The notes under the pieces were generated by a model. The model was not told where the DNA came from, did not search any database, and saw nothing but the letters and a program-made list of their open reading frames with translations. A stretch of DNA of 64,000 bases. Origin: Candidatus Poribacteria bacterium. GTDB taxonomy: Bacteria; Poribacteria; WGA-4E; WGA-3G. The stretch spans positions 864,001 to 928,000 of the forward strand of contig OZ219753.1 of the NCBI GenBank assembly GCA_964291315.2, read 5' to 3'. Numbering within the stretch: position 1 is the stretch's first letter; the number at the start of each line of letters is the position of its first letter. The position numbers were made by a program, and so were the translations under genes. Below are positions 1 to 9,392 of this stretch, piece after piece.

Positions 1-1
1 T

Positions 2-1270
2 GCGCTTGCTCTCTGGAATGGTATCAACTTTCTGTATCCGATTTTACCTGAATTACGAACGCGTGTGCGGAGTGTTCAAATCTTTACAGAGAGTCCGTGG
101 AACGCTATGGGTAGAATCCCGTTTTCATTCTATCCTTTTGCTATTGGACTTGGTTTCTTTATCCCGCTGGATCTTTCGTTCTCTTGTTGGTTTTTCTTCT
201 GGTATTGGCGGTTTATGCGGGTTTTTGGTGCTGCGCTTGGGCTGCGCAGCCTCCCTGGCTTCCCTTATATGAGTGAGCAAGCGTCTGGTGGCTATCTTGC
301 GCTATGCATTTTGGCAATTTGGGCAAGTCGAAGGCATCTTTTGCGGGTTGGAAGAACTGTTCTTGGCCTGAATACCCAGCGGAAAAACAGTGAAACGTCT
401 GCTTCAAGCGAACCGATGTCGTATCGGGCAGCTACTTTCTGCCTGATAGCCGTAATGGGGTTTCTTACTGTTTTCTGTTACTACGGTGAGGCTGAAGTGT
501 GGGTGATGTTCACATTTTTTGTAGTTTACTATATGATTTCCATTGCTATAACTCGGATGCGCGCTGAGTTAGGTACTCCTGTTCATGACTTACACTATTC
601 TGGTCCGGATGAAATATTGACTCGCACTGTCGGCACACGCCGGTTGGGTAGAAACAACCTTATTATGTTTTCCATGTTTTGGTTTATCAATCGTGCATAT
701 CGGAGTCATCCGATGCCGCACCAGTTGGAGGGTTTCAAAATCATGGAGCGTACAAACATGACAATGCATCGCATAGTTTTCGCTTTGACGTTAGCAACTG
801 TTTTGGGTTCATTGGCGGGGTTTTGGGCGTTGATTGATCGTGCTTATCGCTTGGGCATGGAAGTGCGGGCTTATTCGCCGTCTCTGAGTGCTTTCGGCAT
901 AGAGCCGTATCGTCGCCTTGCTGGATGGTTACAAGCGCCTGAAGGGGCGCTTATACCGGAGAGCGGGTTTATGGGGGTCGGTTTTCTGTTGACAACGGTG
1001 CTTATGTTTTTTCGGATGCGTTTCGTTTGGTGGCCATTTCATCCTGCTGGATTTGCTATCTCAACAAGTTGGGGCATGAACGTTACGTGGAGTTGTCTAT
1101 TCCTGAGCTGGTTGATCAAGTGGCTTATTCTTCAATATGGCGGTGTGATTCAACATCGCAAGATATCTCCGTTCTTCTTGGGATTAATCTTAGGAGAGTT
1201 TACAGTCGGCAGTCTGTGGACAATTCTCGGAATTATCGCTGGAATTCCTACCTACGGGTTTTGGGTTTAA
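2..1270 (+). CDS. DUF6785/DUF6784-like polytopic membrane protein (putative peptide transporter), 5'-truncated by the window edge
   Basis: Frame is open from position 2 (ALALWNGINFLYP...). Many TM segments; shares PWNAMG, SFYPFAIG, IPLDL, NRAYRxHPMP and WWPxHP motifs with 51090..53063. Confidence 0.75.
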   Translation, partial: ALALWNGINFLYPILPELRTRVRSVQIFTESPWNAMGRIPFSFYPFAIGLGFFIPLDLSFSCWFFFWYWRFMRVFGAALGLRSLPGFPYMSEQASGGYLALCILAIWASRRHLLRVGRTVLGLNTQRKNSETSASSEPMSYRAATFCLIAVMGFLTVFCYYGEAEVWVMFTFFVVYYMISIAITRMRAELGTPVHDLHYSGPDEILTRTVGTRRLGRNNLIMFSMFWFINRAYRSHPMPHQLEGFKIMERTNMTMHRIVFALTLATVLGSLAGFWALIDRAYRLGMEVRAYSPSLSAFGIEPYRRLAGWLQAPEGALIPESGFMGVGFLLTTVLMFFRMRFVWWPFHPAGFAISTSWGMNVTWSCLFLSWLIKWLILQYGGVIQHRKISPFFLGLILGEFTVGSLWTILGIIAGIPTYGFWV

Positions 1271-1319
1271 CCGGTTCAGGTTATCCGGGTGCTGCTGTTC
1301 TCTAACGTCTGATGTAATG

Positions 1320-4193
1320 TTAATACCCTTCATCAGGGCGTGTATTTATCGCTAGGTTTAGTGGTAAGAAAAATAGTGTCAGACTGAACAAAACTGCCCA
1401 CTGCCATTCCCATTTGAGATGTGCCATCCCCAAGAATTGCCTAATAGGTTCGACATAGACAGCAATCAGATGAAGTGCGATGCAGGTGAAGAAGACGATG
1501 AGGAGTTGGGTATTGGCAAACATCCGCTGGAAGAGCGGTTCCCATGGATACCGCAATGTTTGCCAACATGTCGTCAATTGTGTAAGAATCAGCGTGGTAC
1601 ATGCGACTGTTCGCGCTATTGAGATATCCGGGATTTCCTGATTTGTCGGATTTGAAGTGGAGAATACATTTTTCAGTAATGTCGAAATGCCGAGCGGATC
1701 AGAGAGGGCAGGCGAGTTCCAAAGCAGGAAGAAAAACGGGATAACCGTCATCAGCGCGATGGTTGCAGAACGGCAAATAATATCTACAAGTGTTGTTTTC
1801 GAGAAGAAGCGGGAAGTGGAAAAAAGGGTTGGTCGGTGATGTTTTTCATCTGCAAATATTTTTTCTGTTCCGACCGCTAATGAGGGCAGTAAGGTTAGGA
1901 GGAATTGCACCCAAATGACTTGTGTTAACGTCAAAGGCATAGGCAGTTTATAGAGGTAATGTAAGATTGTGCCGAAGGTAAGTGTTAGGAGTAAGGAGAG
2001 CGTGCAGGAGAAACTCCATCTTAGAAAGCCGGCGATATTGTGATATGCTTCTCGTGCGTAAAGTAGTCCGTCTCTTACTGCTTGAAAGCCTTTTGTGTCG
2101 ATTAATCCGTCAGCGACGGCTTGAACGACATGTGATGCTCGGTTGCTATCTGCGAGCGTAGTGTTGGCGACGTTCATGGCGCGCAGGTCTGCGCTATTTT
2201 CGCCGAGGAATCCCACGATTTGTCCTTGTCGTTTCAGGCTGAGAACAATATTTCTGCGTTGTTCCCAGTTGGGTTGAGAATAAGCAAGCCACTTTGAGTT
2301 TTCTGCGTCGAATTTTTCACGTGGAATTTCTTCTAGTTCGTCGGCGGATACGACTGATTTTCTGTTGTGAATTAACCCGAGGTCCTTGGCGAAATCGATT
2401 GTCTGTTGTTTTGTATCTTCTGCCATGAGGATAATTTTAAGTCCGGTATCAAGGCTGGATTTGAGCACCTTCTTTGTTTGTTCACTGTTGCTGACAGAGA
2501 GCGCGATAAACCCCAAAAATGTTGCGCTGTTTTCCATTTCCTGTGGTTTCAAAATAACGTCGGAGGAGTGGAAGGCGACTCCGTAAATCTGGGCTCTAGT
2601 GGTAAGTAGGTAGTTAATAGCTTCGCAGTATTTCTCGTATCGGTCATCTTGCATCGGTACAATTTCGCCACCGATAAAGACTTCTGCACAAGTATCAAGC
2701 ACTATCTGTGCGTCCCCAAAAATGACATTGGAATAGTTCTCTGGTTCTGCCTCGAACACCTTCATCTGATATCCGTAATTACGTGTGGCGGGGTATGAAT
2801 CTACCAAGGGGAGTTTGTGGTGCAGCGCATTGAGTTGGTAGCCGAGTTGTTGGATCGCTTTTTGAATGGTTGCTTGTGCTGAAAGAGCCTCGTTTGGTGT
2901 TCGTGTGTTTGAGTCTTCCTCTATATTGGGAGTCTCGGAATTATCTGTTTGTTGTTGGTTAGAAATACAGAGTCCAGCTGTAAATAGCAGGTGAGGCACA
3001 CCTTGCGGGATTTTTCCGCGGGTCGGCATTGTCTCAACCGTCTCTTGTCGTTCTCTGGGGGACAGGCTTTGCAAAGAGTCTAACCACTGCTGCAAGGCGT
3101 TACCGTCAACGAGTTGTTCATCCACAAAGAGATTAGAGATTGTTAATGTTCGTGTTGTAGAGAGGCCTTCTTCATTTGCGCAGAAGGCGGTAATGCGGCT
3201 CAATTTTTCAAGGCTGCGTGGGTTTCGTAATATAATGCCTTTTGCCAATAGTTTTTGGGTATGCTGCGAAAAAGAGACCCGCAGCAATGAAATGGCATCG
3301 TGTGGTGTAGCGGCAAGGATGAAGAGTACTCCAAGGTATAGCAGTGCGTACCAATCGGTTGACTGCTTCTGATATTCAAACCACCAAGCGACTCCAACAG
3401 TTATGCTGGCAACAATTGCTCCTGCCACTTTCATAGTGTTGTGGAGGTTTTGCGCCTCATTTTCTGCCAGGGTGTTCCGGGTTTTCGGTGCATGGACATC
3501 ACGTCGTTGTTTTCGTATTTCCAGGTCTTTTCCTGTCTGTACAACAATTGCGAATCCGTGTCCTGCCGTGATGTATGTTCCCCCGAATGCCATATTTTTT
3601 TGTTTTTGTGGTGGTACGCCTGCCTCAGTAATATCCGAGCTTGTTTTCATTACTGGTTCTTGAGTACCAAAGAGTGCGGATTCGTCGATCCTCAGTCCTT
3701 CAGATTCGATAATTCGGGCATCAGCTGGCACATAGTCGCCTGCCGTGAGGGGGAGTAGATCACCCGGCAAGATGTCTTCGGGGGGGTATCTGTCTGTTTT
3801 TCCGTCCCGGATGACTTTGACACTGTGTGCCATAAGTTGGCGTATGCTCTTGTCGCGGTTGCGGTTTTGATGGTTTGTCAGATACGCCCATCCGATATGC
3901 AGAATTAAGACAGCTGCAACAACTCCTATCGTAGAAAGACTAATACCGCTTGCTTCCTTGGTAAAGGCGATAATCAAGGTAATCATTGCTAATGTCAGAA
4001 CGATGATGCGCCATGTAACCAGTGGCCCTAGGATCTCTTTAAGAGGCGGCGTTTTTTCCATGGGTTCCAGATCGTTCGTGCCATACTGTGCTTTCGCTTT
4101 TTCTACAGCGGAAGCGCTCAACCCTTGGTTGATACTGGAGTTGAATTTATTCAATATGGATGCAATGTTTTCGGTATAAAAATTTGGTATCAT
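1320..4193 (-). CDS. P-type (PII-like) cation ATPase homolog, catalytically degenerate
   Basis: N-terminal GLS...YGxNxL, PGD...GDYVPADARI, KNMAFGGT and the C-terminal TM bundle are present; DKTGT reads NEEGL, TGES reads FGTQ, GDGVND reads GENSAD. Confidence 0.85.
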   Translation of the reverse strand: MIPNFYTENIASILNKFNSSINQGLSASAVEKAKAQYGTNDLEPMEKTPPLKEILGPLVTWRIIVLTLAMITLIIAFTKEASGISLSTIGVVAAVLILHIGWAYLTNHQNRNRDKSIRQLMAHSVKVIRDGKTDRYPPEDILPGDLLPLTAGDYVPADARIIESEGLRIDESALFGTQEPVMKTSSDITEAGVPPQKQKNMAFGGTYITAGHGFAIVVQTGKDLEIRKQRRDVHAPKTRNTLAENEAQNLHNTMKVAGAIVASITVGVAWWFEYQKQSTDWYALLYLGVLFILAATPHDAISLLRVSFSQHTQKLLAKGIILRNPRSLEKLSRITAFCANEEGLSTTRTLTISNLFVDEQLVDGNALQQWLDSLQSLSPRERQETVETMPTRGKIPQGVPHLLFTAGLCISNQQQTDNSETPNIEEDSNTRTPNEALSAQATIQKAIQQLGYQLNALHHKLPLVDSYPATRNYGYQMKVFEAEPENYSNVIFGDAQIVLDTCAEVFIGGEIVPMQDDRYEKYCEAINYLLTTRAQIYGVAFHSSDVILKPQEMENSATFLGFIALSVSNSEQTKKVLKSSLDTGLKIILMAEDTKQQTIDFAKDLGLIHNRKSVVSADELEEIPREKFDAENSKWLAYSQPNWEQRRNIVLSLKRQGQIVGFLGENSADLRAMNVANTTLADSNRASHVVQAVADGLIDTKGFQAVRDGLLYAREAYHNIAGFLRWSFSCTLSLLLTLTFGTILHYLYKLPMPLTLTQVIWVQFLLTLLPSLAVGTEKIFADEKHHRPTLFSTSRFFSKTTLVDIICRSATIALMTVIPFFFLLWNSPALSDPLGISTLLKNVFSTSNPTNQEIPDISIARTVACTTLILTQLTTCWQTLRYPWEPLFQRMFANTQLLIVFFTCIALHLIAVYVEPIRQFLGMAHLKWEWQWAVLFSLTLFFLPLNLAINTRPDEGY

Positions 4194-4283
4194 ATTTTTT
4201 TAAGTGCAAGGCTTTAGCGGATTGGGGAACCTATGTCCCCATGAAATTCCAAAGTTAGCAATCCTGATTGATATTTCGGGGTG

Positions 4284-5207
4284 CTAGCAAAACACATGCA
4301 CCTTTGTTCCGTGTGCATCTGGCTTTAGGATCTTGCTGTTGCAGATTATTTGATGGTTTTTGAATGCACGCTGCATCTCTTTTGCAATCTTTTCGGGGTT
4401 TTCTAGACAATAGGCTGCTATGGTTGGACCTGCGCCGCTCAGAGCAACGCTAAGTGCCCCAGCGTCAGTGGCAGCTTCAGCAACCTCTTTAAACCCTGGG
4501 ATCAGTGAGGTTCGATAGGGCTGATGGAGTTTATCCTTCATAGCGACTCTCAACATTTCAAATTGCTTGGTGGCGATGCTAGCAATGAGGAGTGTACTGC
4601 GGCTTGTATTATAGATCGCATCCGAGAAGGGAACATATTGTGGTAGAACCGTGCGTGCTCTTTGGGTTGAGAGCGGAAAATCTGGAATAGCGAGTACAAC
4701 AGAGAGTTCAGGCGGACATGGCATCTGAATGGTATGCACTTCTCCATTCTCTTGTGCTGAGACAACGATACCCCCATATAAAGATGCTGCCACGTTGTCT
4801 GGGTGTCCCTCCATTTGTGTTGCAAAGTTAAGGAGTTCAACGTCAGAAAATGGTGTGTGACACAGGGCGTTTGCGGTCAACAATCCCCCGAGAATAGCTG
4901 TACCACTGCCCCCCAATCCGCGAGTTGCCGGTATGCCGTTGTTTATATATAATTTGAAGCCGTTTGGGCGTTTGGTTCCACTTTGCTTGAAAACTAGTTC
5001 TACTGCTTGGAACGCTATGTGTTCTGGTGTACTTTGTATTTTATCGGTGTCTACGCCGCTTACAACGACTTCAGTTTTTGTTTCGGATGGTTCCAATGTG
5101 ACTGTACTATAGAGCTGTAAAGCGAGTCCTAGCACATCAAAGCCGGGCCCCAAATTTGTTGTGCTGGCTGGGATCCGGGCGGTAGCTTTCTTGAAATTGT
5201 GAGGCAT
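4284..5207 (-). CDS. thrB: homoserine kinase
   Basis: PASTTNLGPGFDVLGLAL, IPATRGLGGSG, EGHPDNVAA, HQPYR, LSGAGPT. Confidence 0.95.
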   Translation of the reverse strand: MPHNFKKATARIPASTTNLGPGFDVLGLALQLYSTVTLEPSETKTEVVVSGVDTDKIQSTPEHIAFQAVELVFKQSGTKRPNGFKLYINNGIPATRGLGGSGTAILGGLLTANALCHTPFSDVELLNFATQMEGHPDNVAASLYGGIVVSAQENGEVHTIQMPCPPELSVVLAIPDFPLSTQRARTVLPQYVPFSDAIYNTSRSTLLIASIATKQFEMLRVAMKDKLHQPYRTSLIPGFKEVAEAATDAGALSVALSGAGPTIAAYCLENPEKIAKEMQRAFKNHQIICNSKILKPDAHGTKVHVFC

Positions 5208-5251
5208 ATAAAAAAGATCCTATTATCCTCTACGATTGTTTGTCAGTCTTA

Positions 5252-5299
5252 GGTTATCAGTTAGGAGTTTTCGTTAACAGAGGTCTCTGAACTGATACC
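5252..5299. repeat. intergenic palindromic (REP-like) element
   Basis: GGTTATCAGTT...AACTGATACC inverted arms; similar arms occur in other intergenic regions. Confidence 0.4.
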
Positions 5300-5310
5300 T
5301 ATTGGTGTTG

Positions 5311-6483
5311 CTACAATTTCATAATTGCAGTTTTCATTCTATCCAATGCCTCTTGGATATTTTCCAATGAGTTCGCGTACGACAGGCGGAGATAACCGTC
5401 GCCATATTTGCCGAAGGATGTGCCTGGCAATAAAGCGACATCTGCTTCATCCATTAGATGATCAGCGAGCGTTTCACAGGAAAGAGGGAGTTGTGTGACG
5501 TTGGGGAATACATAGAATGAGCCGAGCGGTTTAATGCAGCTCACTCCTTCGATAGCGTTCAGTCCGTTCACAATAGCGTCACGTCGTTTCTGAAATTCGC
5601 TTACCATTTCTGTGACAAATGTTTGTGGGCCGGTGAGTGCCTCTATTCCGGCGATTTGTGTGAAGGTAGCGGTACATGAATTGGAGTTAATCGTTAGCTG
5701 TGTAATCTTATCTGCGATTTCTCGTGGAGCGATTCCGTATCCGAGTCGCCATCCTGTCATTGCGTAGGTTTTAGAGTGACCATCAATGAGAATAGTTCGC
5801 TTCTTCATGCCGGGGAGGTTGATGATGCTGTGGTGTTGTCCTTCATAGAGAATGCGAGAGTAGACTTCATCGGTAAGCACATAAAAGTTATGTTTTTCTG
5901 CAAGTTCTGCGATGGCTTTGAGGTCTTCTAGGGTTAGTGTTCCGCCTGTGGGGTTCTGCGGGGAGTTGAGAATCAGTAATTTTGTTCGATCGGAGATTGC
6001 GCTGGACAGCTCGTCGAATCGGAACCGGAAATCTACTTCCTCGCGGAGCGGCAGGGGTACAGCTTTCCCGCCGATGAAGTCGATGACTGATTCATAAACG
6101 GGGAAGCCCGGTTCTGGATAAATTACTTCATCGCCATCATCGATGAGTGCCAAGATCGTAAAGAAAATGATTGGCTTAGCCCCAGGTGTCACCGTCACTT
6201 CGTCGGGGTGTATATTGACTCTGCGGGTTTCTGTTATGTGTTCTGCGATAACTTCTCGAAACTCTGGTAACCCTGCGGATGGACAGTAGCCGGTATGCCC
6301 GTCCTTCATTGCTTGGTATGCTGCCTCGATGATGTTAATCGGTGTTGTGAAATCTGGCTGCCCTATCTCTAAGTGGATGATGTTTCTGCCTTGTGCTTCT
6401 AATTGTTTTGCTTTGGCAAGCACTTCGAAAGCGGATTCTGTTCCCAATCGATTCATCCGCGGGGCGAATGTGGATATTTCCAA
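5311..6483 (-). CDS. PLP-dependent aminotransferase class I/II (aspartate aminotransferase family)
   Basis: IGQPDF, NSPQNPTG, DEVY, SKTYAMTGWRLGY; TTG start at 6483 follows an AGGAGG RBS. Confidence 0.9.
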   Translation of the reverse strand: MEISTFAPRMNRLGTESAFEVLAKAKQLEAQGRNIIHLEIGQPDFTTPINIIEAAYQAMKDGHTGYCPSAGLPEFREVIAEHITETRRVNIHPDEVTVTPGAKPIIFFTILALIDDGDEVIYPEPGFPVYESVIDFIGGKAVPLPLREEVDFRFRFDELSSAISDRTKLLILNSPQNPTGGTLTLEDLKAIAELAEKHNFYVLTDEVYSRILYEGQHHSIINLPGMKKRTILIDGHSKTYAMTGWRLGYGIAPREIADKITQLTINSNSCTATFTQIAGIEALTGPQTFVTEMVSEFQKRRDAIVNGLNAIEGVSCIKPLGSFYVFPNVTQLPLSCETLADHLMDEADVALLPGTSFGKYGDGYLRLSYANSLENIQEALDRMKTAIMKL

Positions 6484-6629
6484 AATTATACCTCCTATAC
6501 CACAAAAAATGGTTCGTTCAGGTTTGGACGGCAAGTGGCAAACCTGAGTTCTAGAATTGTATATTGGTTTCAGATGTGGATCTAAGGAGTAGCAGTATCT
6601 GTGATGCTTCTACTCCGTTATGTGATGCT

Positions 6630-7688
6630 TTATTCCAGATGCATGATGGTTCCTGTGGAGCTTGCTAGCCACACGTTTTTTTCATCAAGTACAAAGACTT
6701 TGACCAATTTTTCCTTATATTCTTCGAGTTGCCAAGTTTTGCCGCCATCTGTTGTATGTAGGATGGCCCCAACTCCCAGGTCGCCTCCGGTGGCCCATCC
6801 GTTATTTTCGTCAGCGAACCCGACGCTTCGCAGGGTTTCCTGTGTGCCGCTGGTCTGATCTGTCCAAGTTTCGCCGCCGTTGTTGGTGTGAAGGATTACG
6901 CCATTTTCGCCGACTGCCCATCCTATTGAGGCATTAAGAAAGAAGATGTCTTCGAGAATGTCTTCTCTCCCGGTGTCTTGCGTGACCCAGCTCCGCGCCC
7001 CGTCAGTGGTTTTCTGAATGAGGGAGCTCTGCGTTTTTGCGCTGGGGCTCACGTGGACTCCTGCGAGCCAGCCTGTTTCTTCATTTAGGAACTGGACAGC
7101 GTTGTACATATTCGCGTCGTCATCACCAATTTGCCCGAGGAGTCCTCCTTGGAGGACTTTCCATGAACGTCCGCCGTTTCTTGTGGAAAGGATTGTGTCG
7201 CTTTCTCCTACGGCGAACCCGATATCTTTATTAGCGAAGTAGATGTCTTTAAGACCGTTTCCGACTTTGCTTGCTTGCAGGTCCCAGTCTTGACCGTTAG
7301 TAGTTGCTACGATTGTACCGTTTGCGCCGACTGCCCATCCGTATTTATCATCTAAGAAGTAAACTTCGGCTAAATCGGCGCTAATTTTGACCTCCGATTT
7401 CTTCCAGGATGCTCCGCCGTTTGTCGTGTAACCGATAAACCCGGGGTTCTCGAAGTCCTCGAATGATGCTGCGCCGACTACCCACCCCGTGTTTTTGCTA
7501 GTAAAGGTGAGCGACATGTAATCTCGGAAGTCTGGATCACGTTCTTGCAGGACTGTCCAGGCTTCCGCGGATGGTAAAGCAGCAAAAATGGAGTAAGCGG
7601 TTGCTACGGCTAGAAGGGTTGCTAAATGCAATGTGAGTTTTAAACTGTTTCGTCTGAACCGAAGTCCGTGTGACTTCAATTTATTCAT
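6630..7688 (-). CDS. YCF48-related / BNR-repeat beta-propeller secreted protein
   Basis: Signal peptide; repeated F.....GW.VG..G.I..T.DGG.TW units. Confidence 0.85.
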   Translation of the reverse strand: MNKLKSHGLRFRRNSLKLTLHLATLLAVATAYSIFAALPSAEAWTVLQERDPDFRDYMSLTFTSKNTGWVVGAASFEDFENPGFIGYTTNGGASWKKSEVKISADLAEVYFLDDKYGWAVGANGTIVATTNGQDWDLQASKVGNGLKDIYFANKDIGFAVGESDTILSTRNGGRSWKVLQGGLLGQIGDDDANMYNAVQFLNEETGWLAGVHVSPSAKTQSSLIQKTTDGARSWVTQDTGREDILEDIFFLNASIGWAVGENGVILHTNNGGETWTDQTSGTQETLRSVGFADENNGWATGGDLGVGAILHTTDGGKTWQLEEYKEKLVKVFVLDEKNVWLASSTGTIMHLE

Positions 7689-7740
7689 CTTTATTCTTTC
7701 TCCTTTATTTTATCAGCTTCTATAAGCAGGTTTTCAAGCG

Positions 7741-7769
7741 TTGAGGTACACCGAAGATATTATTACACT
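7741..7769 (+). promoter_or_regulatory. putative sigma70 promoter for the candidate ncRNA
   Basis: TTGAGG-17bp-TACACT ending 5 nt before a long hairpin. Confidence 0.35.
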
Positions 7770-7773
7770 AGCG

Positions 7774-7863
7774 GTGTGCCTTTAAATATGAGGCTGTGAA
7801 TAGAAGGTGTCTTAGTCTATCTCTCGGGAGATTGGGTTCTGAACACCTATAGCCAAGGCATAT
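7774..7863 (+). ncRNA. candidate ~90-nt rod-shaped RNA, family unknown
   Basis: Nested pairings GTGTGCCTT/AAGGCATAT, GGCT/AGCC, AGGTGT/ACACCT, ATCTC-TCGG-GAGAT; G-U pairs favour the + strand. Confidence 0.35.
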
Positions 7864-7887
7864 TGTGTTGACAAAAGCCATTTTTAT

Positions 7888-7917
7888 ATTATAACCGTGA
7901 ATTAAAAAATAAGTCAA
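7888..7917 (-). promoter_or_regulatory. putative sigma70 promoter for the YCF48-like gene
   Basis: TTGACT-18bp-TATAAT on the minus strand in AT-rich DNA. Confidence 0.45.
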
Positions 7918-8006
7918 TAATTTTTTTTGTAATTTCAGTTGTGTTCGTGATCTTCTCACGTTCCTATGTAGAAATGCGGGTTTGGCATTGCTTGCGACGT
8001 TGCAAT

Positions 8007-9392
8007 CTACTTAGCAACAATCAAAGTGCCTGTTTCAAAACTTTCGCCTACTTGAAGTTGATACACATAAACGCCGCTTTCTACAATTTCCGCGTTTTCG
8101 TCGCGTCCGGTCCATGTCAAGACTGTTTCTCCCGGCATCGCGGTTAAGGTTTTGACGAGGCTTCCATCAATACTGTAAATAAGCACTGTGAATTCGCCCG
8201 AGGCATCTTCAAGTGCGCGTGCGGGGAACACAACTTGATTGAAATCTGGATTTGGAGAGAGCGGTGTGAATGGGTTTGGATAGGGTTTGTCAAACAGACG
8301 GAGTTTTTTCTGTATAGGTTCGGATCTGTTATTTGCTTCGTCAACAGCGATAACTGCGTAAGTAAAGCTTCCTATAGATAAAGGTCGGGTATCAATAAAT
8401 TTATATTCTGTTTTTGTTTCGCGTATTTCTCCGTTTGGGAGAGGGGTGAGTCGGTTGGTTTCAGGTGATCCGAAGAGTACCCGGTAGGTTGTTACGTCGC
8501 GACTGACGCTCGGTTTCCAAAGCACTTCGACACCATCGCTTGAGTTAATAATGCTCAGCATCGACGGCGGTTCTGGTGCAGCAGTATCGGTTGATACTTC
8601 TACTGTTTGAACTGTGGAACGTTCGGATTGCAAAAAGAGCGTTTTATAAGCGGTTATCTGATATGTGTGACTTCCTGGTGGCACGTTTATCTCGCGAAAC
8701 GTTGTTGCGGAACGGTTTTCAACATTGATAGGGGGTTCTTTATCTCTGTAGATGAGGTAGCCGTTGATGTCCAAGTCCTCGGATTTCTGCCAGCGTAGCG
8801 TCACATCGTTCTCGCCTGTTGCATCGGGGCTAGCAATAAAATCGATGACTGGCTCGGGCGGGACGTTGGCAATTACCTCTAAGGTAAAGTCATCATTGTT
8901 GAGTTTCCCGTCTGCCTGGCCGGATCGGATAAATTCTCCGATAGGAGTGTCTTGGAGGTTACGCAGTCGAGCTCTGAACACCGTTTCTAAGATGACGGTA
9001 TTTGGTGTTCGGGCGTCGAACGTAATTTCATAGATTGAGTTCTGAAAATCGACGACGGCATCTGCTAACTCAACGCGTAGGACGGTTCCGCCAGAGACTA
9101 CCGCTCTCGCTGCAATTGGATTTCCGTCTCGTCTGATTTGTTTAAAAGAGGGCGGTTGGGTCAGAAATCCGGTGGGCATTAAGACTTCGATGGTTTTAAT
9201 TTCTTCACCTGGTTCTGCCAAAGATCTATCAACGACAAGGGTTACAACCAATGGCACTGTTGAACTAGCGGGGACAACGCCTTTGGTTTCGCCTGTGACA
9301 TTAATTTCTCCGACGGAAGTAACTGCCCCAAAACTCTTGCTGTTGCTGAACAAACTACAGATGATTATGAGAACGATGACTGTTTTTTTCAT
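8007..9392 (-). CDS. secreted fibronectin type III protein with C-terminal FlgD-Ig (T9SS CTD-like) domain
   Basis: Signal peptide; two FN3-like units (V.L.W..S.D.....Y..Y, Y.V.AVD.A.N.S); C-terminal YPNPF...WTGRDENAEIVESGVYVYQL. Confidence 0.8.
   Translation of the reverse strand: MKKTVIVLIIICSLFSNSKSFGAVTSVGEINVTGETKGVVPASSTVPLVVTLVVDRSLAEPGEEIKTIEVLMPTGFLTQPPSFKQIRRDGNPIAARAVVSGGTVLRVELADAVVDFQNSIYEITFDARTPNTVILETVFRARLRNLQDTPIGEFIRSGQADGKLNNDDFTLEVIANVPPEPVIDFIASPDATGENDVTLRWQKSEDLDINGYLIYRDKEPPINVENRSATTFREINVPPGSHTYQITAYKTLFLQSERSTVQTVEVSTDTAAPEPPSMLSIINSSDGVEVLWKPSVSRDVTTYRVLFGSPETNRLTPLPNGEIRETKTEYKFIDTRPLSIGSFTYAVIAVDEANNRSEPIQKKLRLFDKPYPNPFTPLSPNPDFNQVVFPARALEDASGEFTVLIYSIDGSLVKTLTAMPGETVLTWTGRDENAEIVESGVYVYQLQVGESFETGTLIVAK

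Follow-up and report, generated by a model that had tools for sequence, protein, structure and literature searches.

A homologue of P2A-type ATPases, conserved across the Poribacteria, in which every catalytic signature is replaced

P-type ATPases are textbook enzymes, and the aspartate of their DKTGT motif is treated as universal. The question considered here is what to make of an uninterrupted, full-length gene of this superfamily in which that aspartate and all the other catalytic signatures have been replaced. The gene lies at positions 1320 to 4193, on the minus strand, of a 64,000-nucleotide stretch of the genome of a Candidatus Poribacteria bacterium (contig OZ219753.1, positions 864,001 to 928,000; this whole stretch is called the window) and is referred to as the pseudo-pump gene. 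A preliminary description had proposed that every catalytic motif was erased from an intact reading frame, and that the loss reflects selection for a non-catalytic role such as channel, sensor, scaffold or regulator of an active paralogue. The results described below make it very probable that the product is dead as a pump, maintained by selection and of ancient origin.

The open reading frame begins with ATG, encodes 957 amino acids (aa) and has no internal stop codon. Three Pfam families are recognised in the protein, namely E1-E2_ATPase (PF00122; E 7.3e-27, residues 120-308, 94.5 bits against a cut-off of 28.1), Cation_ATPase_C (PF00689; E 4.3e-18, residues 751-946, 66.1 bits, cut-off 27.3) and Cation_ATPase_N (PF00690; E 2.9e-09, residues 7-71, 36.9 bits, cut-off 20.4). 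The HAD/Hydrolase family (PF00702) and the N-domain families of Pfam gave no match in it at E ≤ 1. Every specific P2 equivalog model of NCBIfam scores far under its cut-off, including the PMR1-type model TIGR01522 (189.1 against 798.3 bits) and the SERCA-type model TIGR01116 (146.1 against 703.4 bits), and the generic P-type model TIGR01494 is barely passed (63.3 against 62.3 bits). The best matches among solved structures, found with HMMER, are Listeria LMCA1 (6zhf, E 1.8e-50) and SPCA1, and the alignment with SERCA2 spans residues 3-940. By homology and by fold the protein is a member of the P-type ATPase superfamily. Its parts are listed here, with omega denoting the ratio of nonsynonymous to synonymous substitution rates (dN/dS).

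1320..4193, minus strand: pseudo-pump gene, a P2A-type ATPase homologue with all catalytic signatures replaced; 957 aa, stop codon at 1320-1322
4044..4193, minus strand: N-terminal part of the actuator region, residues 1-50 (boundary approximate), with Cation_ATPase_N; omega 0.175
3858..4043, minus strand: helices M1-M2, residues 51-112 (approximate), model helices 61-78 and 86-120; omega 0.165
3489..3857, minus strand: A (actuator) domain, residues 113-235, core conserved and TGES lost; omega 0.138
3660..3671, minus strand: FGTQ in place of TGES, residues 175-178; F175 is invariant in the 120 closest homologues
3228..3488, minus strand: helices M3-M4, residues 236-322, model helices 242-275, 281-294 and 300-317 with a break at P297
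3294..3305, minus strand: PHDA (residues 297-300) at the PEGL site of M4; the Pro is invariant and the position of the former ion-binding Glu is hypervariable
3108..3227, minus strand: first half of the P domain, residues 323-362, the most constrained segment; omega 0.067
3162..3176, minus strand: NEEGL (residues 340-344) at the DKTGT site; Asn takes the place of the phosphorylated Asp and Glu that of the Lys
2508..3107, minus strand: homologue of the N (nucleotide-binding) domain, residues 363-562; its acidic insert, 413-436, is disordered (predicted local distance difference test, pLDDT, <50)
2709..2720, minus strand: FGDA in place of KGAP, residues 492-495, by the LMCA1 alignment and re-translation
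1989..2507, minus strand: second half of the P domain, residues 563-735; omega 0.087
2484..2495, minus strand: VSNS in place of DPPR, residues 567-570, by the LMCA1 alignment and re-translation
2415..2423, minus strand: AED in place of TGD, residues 591-593, by the LMCA1 alignment and re-translation
2187..2204, minus strand: GENSAD (residues 664-669) at the GDGVND site, where nothing but the first Gly (G664) and the last Asp (D669) is kept
1323..1988, minus strand: helices M5-M10, residues 736-957, with Cation_ATPase_C; omega 0.070

In the HMMER alignment with LMCA1 the motifs TGES, PEAL, DKTGT and KGGP of that pump correspond to FGTQ, PHDA, NEEGL and FGDA of the pseudo-pump. Further towards the C-terminus, DPPR corresponds to VSNS, TGD to AED and GDGVND to GENSAD. 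The seven stretches were re-translated from the DNA of the window and all read as aligned, bearing out the earlier statement that all seven catalytic motifs are replaced within an intact frame of 957 aa.

To assess the extent of the loss, the pseudo-pump was aligned with 122 canonical P2-type homologues. Conservation among the latter reaches 90% or more in 107 columns, and the pseudo-pump retains 45 of these. All four such columns of the N-terminal segment are kept, as are 17 of the 25 in the A domain. The first half of the P domain keeps 5/13 and the second half 11/39; the N domain keeps 2/10 and M3-M4 2/8. The column losses cluster at the catalytic, nucleotide and ion sites, and the pattern of motif replacements is far beyond chance. 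In the pocket of the N domain the adenine-stacking Phe is replaced by A469, the Lys of KGAPE by F492 and the Arg by Q535 (positions which we take to be F487, K515 and R560 in SERCA numbering). At the ion site, H298 stands for the M4 Glu, T731 and L734 for the Asn and Glu of M5, and Q763, L766 and T767 for the Asn, Thr and Asp of M6. Each of the features of a working P-type ATPase, namely DKTGT, TGES, the nucleotide pocket, TGD and GDGVND, is missing, and neither the curated score of a P2A equivalog nor the ion ligands of M5, M6 and the PEGL Glu were found. With the nucleophile, the dephosphorylation loop, the nucleotide pocket, the Mg2+ and phosphate ligands and the charged ion ligands lost, the protein would be neither an ATPase nor a Ca2+ pump. 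Judged by its residues, it cannot run the Post-Albers cycle.

The overall fold is predicted to have survived these changes. An AlphaFold2 model calculated from a 100-sequence alignment has a mean pLDDT of 84.9 and a predicted template modelling score (pTM) of 0.82, with disorder limited to residues 413-436 and the last residues of the chain. It has ten long membrane helices, and M4 is broken at the invariant P297. Foldseek aligned the model with whole chains of the Na,K-ATPase, SERCA, H,K-ATPase and SPCA in the PDB, with E down to 2.9e-47, so that the comparison with P2 pumps proposed in the preliminary description yields a match to entire Na,K-ATPase and SERCA structures. In the model both the headpiece of A, N and P domains and the ten-helix P2 architecture are retained. 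The template modelling (TM) scores are 0.75-0.76 to E1-type or cytoplasm-open states and 0.58-0.61 to E2 and E2P states, a preference that is a property of the AlphaFold model and no evidence of the physiological state.

The next question is whether the replacements are peculiar to this genome. When 1.84 billion cluster representatives were searched exhaustively with HMMER, 23,054 matched at E ≤ 1e-3, and the exact DKTGT is missing in 27 of the best 150 of these. A tree of 161 full-length proteins was calculated from 869 trimmed columns with FastTree (LG+gamma, midpoint root). It contains a Poribacteria clade of 33 tips (18 proteins from loci and 15 database representatives) with a support of 1.0. 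DKTGT occurs in none of the 33 members and the catalytic Glu column of TGES is likewise kept in 0/33; the two members that bear source names are both labelled Poribacteria. The other 128 proteins of the tree fall across the midpoint root from this clade. Six variant-motif proteins, carrying for example DKTGM, or NKTGT in an otherwise intact sequence, are placed outside it. The pseudo-pump belongs to a Poribacteria clade that excludes all canonical P2 ATPases. With the poribacterial families numbered f1 to f11 (f1 being that of the window's genome) and the genera g1 to g15, the branches of the clade are f1; f2, f3 and f4; f6, f7 and f9; f8; and f10. This topology mirrors the taxonomy of the genomes and thus fits vertical descent, with long-branch attraction a possible residual artefact of FastTree.

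Within the clade the decay is graded. Proteins of f10, which belongs to another class, have C-[ST]-N-K-K-G-I at the phosphorylation site; they keep T-K-G (the KGA motif) and GDSAND, and the Asp, TGES and the M4 Glu are gone. Their relative P0265 has lost the same three elements, and has C-[ST]-N-K-K-G-I, T-R-G, GESVYD and a preserved DPPR. In f2 and f3 the phosphorylation site mostly reads C-V-D-E-x-G (with N in genera g10 and g13), and M4 carries PEGL or PDGx. The one locus of f4 combines C-V-N-D-V-G with a retained PEGL. In f1 the site is C-A-N-E-x-G-L and the M4 Glu is lost too. The residue at the position of the phosphorylated aspartate is D, N, E or S between families, and even a single genus, g6, has both D (10 genomes) and N (3 genomes) among 13; this toggling between D and N shows that the former nucleophile is not under absolute constraint. 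The order that comprises f1 to f4 has a signature of its own (C-x-[DN]-E-x-G; F-G in place of TGES; G-x-x-x-x-D), to which CANEEGL, FGTQ and GENSAD of the pseudo-pump conform.

Among the best 120 public homologues, which are 59-100% identical to the pseudo-pump, DKTGT is absent from all 120. The column of the phosphorylated Asp holds N in 118 of them, T in one and H in one, and the next residue is E in 118/120. None of the 120 has a precomputed match to the HAD/Hydrolase family of Pfam. Whether the substitutions are fixed, a point raised in the preliminary description, can be answered from the same set: the replacement residues F175, N340, E341, F492, E592, R646, T731, L734 and Q763 are fixed, as are T767 and D669, the last Asp of GDGVND. 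The former M4 Glu position varies (Q 53, H 32, G 12, Y 12, S 9, D 1) and lies at the 94th percentile of entropy. A family-specific new active site was sought; the conserved residues that emerged are scattered (F356-V357-D358, W726, L756, D804, R808, R881, R890) and form no recognisable motif.

The survey of the phylum was made with one genome per species, 176 Poribacteria genomes in all, and a threshold of E ≤ 1e-20; related genomes in it are non-independent observations. A match, nearly always single, was found in 174/176 genomes and in 133/133 of those of high quality. The two genomes that gave no match are 79-81% complete, and four of the 174 matches (three in f5 genomes and one in f11, E 1e-23 to 1e-30) are too weak for assignment to the family. 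The orthologues of 57 genomes were read, and all 57 have a frame of at least 800 aa, and none has DKTGT, TGES or GDG[VI]ND. Flags marked "1 TAG" in genus g15 were considered as gene breaks and rejected, since the reading frames of 915-918 aa are uninterrupted (G048, G052, G045, G051, G039). The flags, which are lacking at the g15 loci G052 and G039, evidently come from the alignment running past the end of the gene.

Selection was measured by the Nei-Gojobori method on 20 same-genus loci, of which the 25 pairs with the least divergence were taken (dS 0.03-0.44). Such closer pairs within genera were used because the comparison of the window's copy with its orthologues is saturated (dS 1.3-3.8). 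The pairwise dN/dS is 0.09-0.21. When summed over seven pairs, omega is at most 0.18 in every domain, rising from 0.067 in the first P-domain half through 0.070 in M5-M10, 0.087 in the second P-domain half, 0.138 in the A domain, 0.153 in the N domain, 0.163 in M3-M4 and 0.165 in M1-M2 to 0.175 in the N-terminal segment. This range, the 57 intact orthologues without motifs and the phylum-wide clade support the earlier view that the motifs were lost under selection for a non-catalytic role and not by decay. Orthologues that keep DKTGT together with neutral evolution of this copy would have spoken against that view, and neither was found.

One of the roles proposed earlier, that of a regulator, calls for an active paralogue. 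The window's genome, which is 95.2% complete, has two E1-E2_ATPase matches, the pseudo-pump and a CopA-type P1B pump of 744 aa, which has TGES, DKTGT and GDGIND, scores 635.8 bits with TIGR01525 and carries an N-terminal CopZ-like metal-binding domain. The latter gene lies on the same contig as the window, about 650 kb from it (G000, contig C4, 1520135-1520674, locus L001). It is the only P-type ATPase of this genome that is catalytically intact, so that P2-type pumps for Ca2+, Mg2+ or K+ appear to be missing altogether. A search with the canonical P2A protein P0132 at E ≤ 1e-70 gave no second P2 gene in the 111 other f1 genomes (0/111). In f2, f3, f6, f7 and f9 all 22 listed matches of P0132 coincide with the coordinates of the pseudo-pump, and no second P2 gene appears at this threshold anywhere in families f1-f9. 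Separate canonical P2 genes, with 41-50% identity, were found in f10 and f11 only, which implies that f10 diverged only after the duplication, or after the family had separated from the canonical lineage. By these searches the dead copy is the sole P2-like gene in most of the phylum, and the earlier suggestion of a regulator of an active paralogue finds no suitable partner here.

A possible clue to the function is offered by the genes directly upstream.

4284..5207, minus strand: thrB, homoserine kinase, directly upstream of the pseudo-pump gene (TIGR00191, 286.6 bits against a cut-off of 168.25)
5311..6534, minus strand: class I/II (aspartate-type) aminotransferase, upstream of thrB (Pfam Aminotran_1_2, 1.6e-69; under the NCBIfam equivalog cut-offs)
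4194..4283, minus strand: spacer of 90 nucleotides between thrB and the pseudo-pump gene, with no promoter-like or terminator-like site and no significant RNA structure

Scans of positions 1000-7000 gave 10 promoter-like sites, against 7.9 in shuffled sequences, and 7 terminator-like sites, against 6.9; neither count exceeds that of the shuffled sequences, and none of the sites is in the spacer. An Rfam scan of positions 1-8000 gave a match at chance level only (E 0.19), and the z-score of the RNA fold of the spacer is -0.52. These features of the spacer are compatible with co-transcription with thrB, and are not proof of it.

The arrangement is widely conserved. The places of both genes are listed for 147 genomes; in 125 of these thrB directly precedes the pseudo-pump gene on the same strand, and the ends of the two matches are 20-589 nucleotides apart. 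The count is 64/64 in g1, 7/7 in g2-g5, 38/38 in g6, 1/1 in g7, 7/10 in g8, 1/1 in each of g9, g10 and g11, 4/4 in g13 and 1/1 in f7. Inspection of open reading frames showed the same order in one locus each of f4, f9 and f8, thrB nearby in f6, and no thrB at the f10 locus. The linkage spans lineages whose pseudo-pumps have only about 25-35% identity, and the aminotransferase is also found upstream of thrB in distant loci. In genus g15 the count is 0/19: thrB is 20-28 kb away in 17 genomes, 1.7 Mb away in one and on another contig in one. In the 17 genomes the two genes are on opposite strands (e.g. G048:C1 3869431-3894836), which suggests one inversion or insertion in the ancestor of the genus. 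A complex prediction for ThrB with the N and P parts of the headpiece (residues 323-735), with a score of 0.00 in a run made without controls, speaks neither for nor against contact between the two.

Taken as a whole, these observations are probably best explained by an ancient, dead P2A descendant that is kept as a selected pseudoenzyme and that may act as a membrane-anchored scaffold or regulatory module. In the sequence of events envisaged, a vertically inherited ATPase of the Ca2+-pump type would have lost catalysis and kept its architecture, and its gene is now most likely transcribed together with thrB. The conserved cytoplasmic headpiece, rather than the old ion site, would carry the function. 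This last element is put forward tentatively; it is favoured because constraint is strongest in the P domain, the core of the A domain is retained and the former ion-site Glu position drifts freely. The linkage with thrB and the aminotransferase hints at a connection with aspartate metabolism, in its threonine branch, and the role of the module may be connected with the steps from aspartate to threonine through this operon context. Of the roles named in the preliminary description, a selected, non-catalytic one stands, and the variable M4 position makes a channel through the old ion site less likely.

Several observations weigh against a scaffold or regulator centred on the headpiece. Its mechanism is drawn entirely from conservation patterns and gene order. 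The constraint on helices M5-M10 matches that on the P domain, and the residues fixed in the family include T731, L734, Q763 and T767, so that a membrane-embedded function, e.g. a solute pathway, is equally compatible with the data. Some residual chemistry may persist in families that keep both the Asp and the M4 Glu (D-E-x-G, PEGL). Finally, the linkage with thrB is broken in g15 and in 3/10 g8 genomes and is absent in f10, and the gene is retained in all of them; the function cannot, therefore, depend strictly on co-transcription with thrB.

Of the alternatives, an ATP-independent channel or carrier is the likeliest, improbable as it is. The ten-helix domain would form a passive or gated path for an ion or small solute, conceivably a metabolite of an amino-acid pathway, given the thrB context, and the headpiece would act as the gate. 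M5-M10 having the second-lowest omega, the fixation of the polar replacements T731, Q763 and T767 in the 120 close homologues, and the retention of a Glu or Asp in M4 (PEGL/PDGx) in f2-f4 all fit such a path, as does the resemblance of the model to cytoplasm-open E1-type states, including the palytoxin-opened Na,K-ATPase (TM 0.75-0.76, against 0.58-0.61 for E2). However, an AlphaFold conformation says nothing of the physiological state, and the canonical gating and ion Glu position of M4 is hypervariable (Q/H/G/Y/S/D) among close relatives. The charged ion ligands are gone in f1, and the family-specific invariant charged residues D804, R808, R881 and R890 are at the ends of helices, not in the middle of the membrane.

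Pseudoenzymes often regulate active paralogues, and the protein could accordingly be pictured as a subunit that modulates a catalytic P-type pump. A canonical P2 gene does coexist with the pseudo-pump in the deep-branching f10, and in mycobacterial CtpH and CtpI a degenerate P-type half is fused to a canonical half, as outlined in PMC13460109. Such a partnership is nevertheless improbable where the only other E1-E2 ATPase of the genome is the distant CopA-type P1B pump and f1-f9 hold no second P2 gene at the threshold used. A pump that couples energy by unorthodox chemistry, for instance through another nucleophile or phosphoryl donor, would account for the full architecture, the strong constraint on the P domain and the Asp that several families keep at the phosphorylation position. 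It is slightly less probable still, as Asn stands in place of the nucleophile here and, in most of the order f1-f4, Glu in place of the adjacent Lys. The protein has also lost TGES, the pocket of the N domain and the first Asp of GDGVND, and the change between D and N within a single genus leaves no absolute constraint on a nucleophile. That the gene is a slowly decaying pseudogene, or a functionless artefact of annotation, is hardly credible. All catalytic motifs are indeed gone and the public annotations are generic or contradictory, but the 57/57 frames of at least 800 aa, the omega of 0.09-0.21, the single-copy retention across the phylum and the confident full-length fold are not those of a relic.

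A more specific form of the scaffold or regulatory module can be formulated, and is considered quite doubtful. At or near the origin of the phylum a P-type machine would have been converted to an ATP-independent membrane module that works with the enzymes of the threonine branch, the aminotransferase and homoserine kinase. The module could be a membrane sensor, a regulator or a conduit for metabolites of the homoserine and threonine pathway. If this were true, the series from the nearly intact f10, in which only TGES and the M4 Glu are lost and Asp is changed to Asn, to the fully eroded f1 would record the steps from a pump to a non-enzyme.

The closest known systems are the P2A Ca2+-ATPases (LMCA1, 6zhf and 9euq; SERCA1a and SERCA2; SPCA1 and PMR1), and bacterial Ca2+-ATPases make up the nearest ESM Atlas clusters. 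The homology extends over the full length and the fold of A, N and P domains with ten helices is the same, with Foldseek TM-scores of up to 0.76; they also have in common the core of the A domain, the proline of M4 and the final Asp of GDGVND. In contrast to these pumps, the pseudo-pump has the seven signatures replaced, together with the M4 Glu, the M5 Asn and the M6 Asn and Asp ligands.

Mycobacterial CtpH and CtpI are similar in that a bacterial P2-type module, the N-terminal P-type-ATPase-like half, is described in outline as degenerate, suggesting non-catalytic reuse (PMC13460109). By the same outline, the dead module there is fused to a presumably active half in a giant protein (PMC13460109), whereas the pseudo-pump stands alone, is the sole P2-like gene of its genome and has its own phylum-wide clade. 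An architecture like that of CtpH and CtpI, so far as PMC13460109 outlines it, was noticed in the public representative P0177 (1543 aa), a double-length P-type ATPase of which residues 673-1448 match the pseudo-pump.

The P4-ATPase-like domains carried by guanylate cyclases of the Apicomplexa and other alveolates are a further example of a P-type scaffold in signalling or regulation rather than in classical pumping. Some of the cyclase-linked copies are catalytically degenerate. These domains are eukaryotic, of the P4 (flippase) class and fused to the cyclase, unlike the pseudo-pump, which has no fused output domain. For GC-alpha of P. falciparum, a preprint reports the ATPase activity of the linked domain to be essential (10.1101/2020.09.07.285734). 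In a full-text search of the literature, neither a dead P-type ATPase standing alone in a prokaryote nor this Poribacteria family turned up; the halves of CtpH and CtpI and the cyclase-linked domains were the nearest published analogues.

The pseudo-pump is a pseudoenzyme of the P-type ATPase fold. A full-length, stand-alone member that lacks both catalysis and an ion site and is under strong selection means that the fold can carry a function other than pumping. The natural series of decay provides material for separating the structural from the catalytic parts of a pump, and the conserved linkage with thrB is a handle for finding the new function. The public labels of homologues are Ca2+-transporting ATPase, cation-transporting P-type ATPase, HAD family hydrolase and hypothetical protein. 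Given the Ca2+-pump labels, metabolic reconstructions that credit sponge-associated Poribacteria with a Ca2+ pump are probably wrong.

Three other genes lie close to this locus in the window.

2-1270, plus strand: polytopic membrane protein with DUF6785/DUF6784, running off the start of the window
6630-7688, minus strand: secreted-looking BNR/Ycf48-like beta-propeller of 352 aa (PSII_BNR 4.4e-26), just upstream of the aminotransferase
8007-9392, minus strand: open reading frame of 461 aa with an N-terminal signal-like segment

The DUF6785/DUF6784 gene is convergent with the pseudo-pump gene, about 50 nucleotides from its stop, and has full-length orthologues of about 650 aa; the arrangement was seen in the f1 genera g1, g2, g3, g4 and g6 and not in other families. 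The BNR/Ycf48-like protein sits in a non-photosynthetic bacterium. Among the public representatives, P0260 (850 aa) is an otherwise canonical P2 ATPase with W in place of conserved Gly (DKTWT, KWA, TWD, TWDGVND); presumably it is the gene of an organism that reads TGA as Gly (code 25), translated with TGA as Trp.

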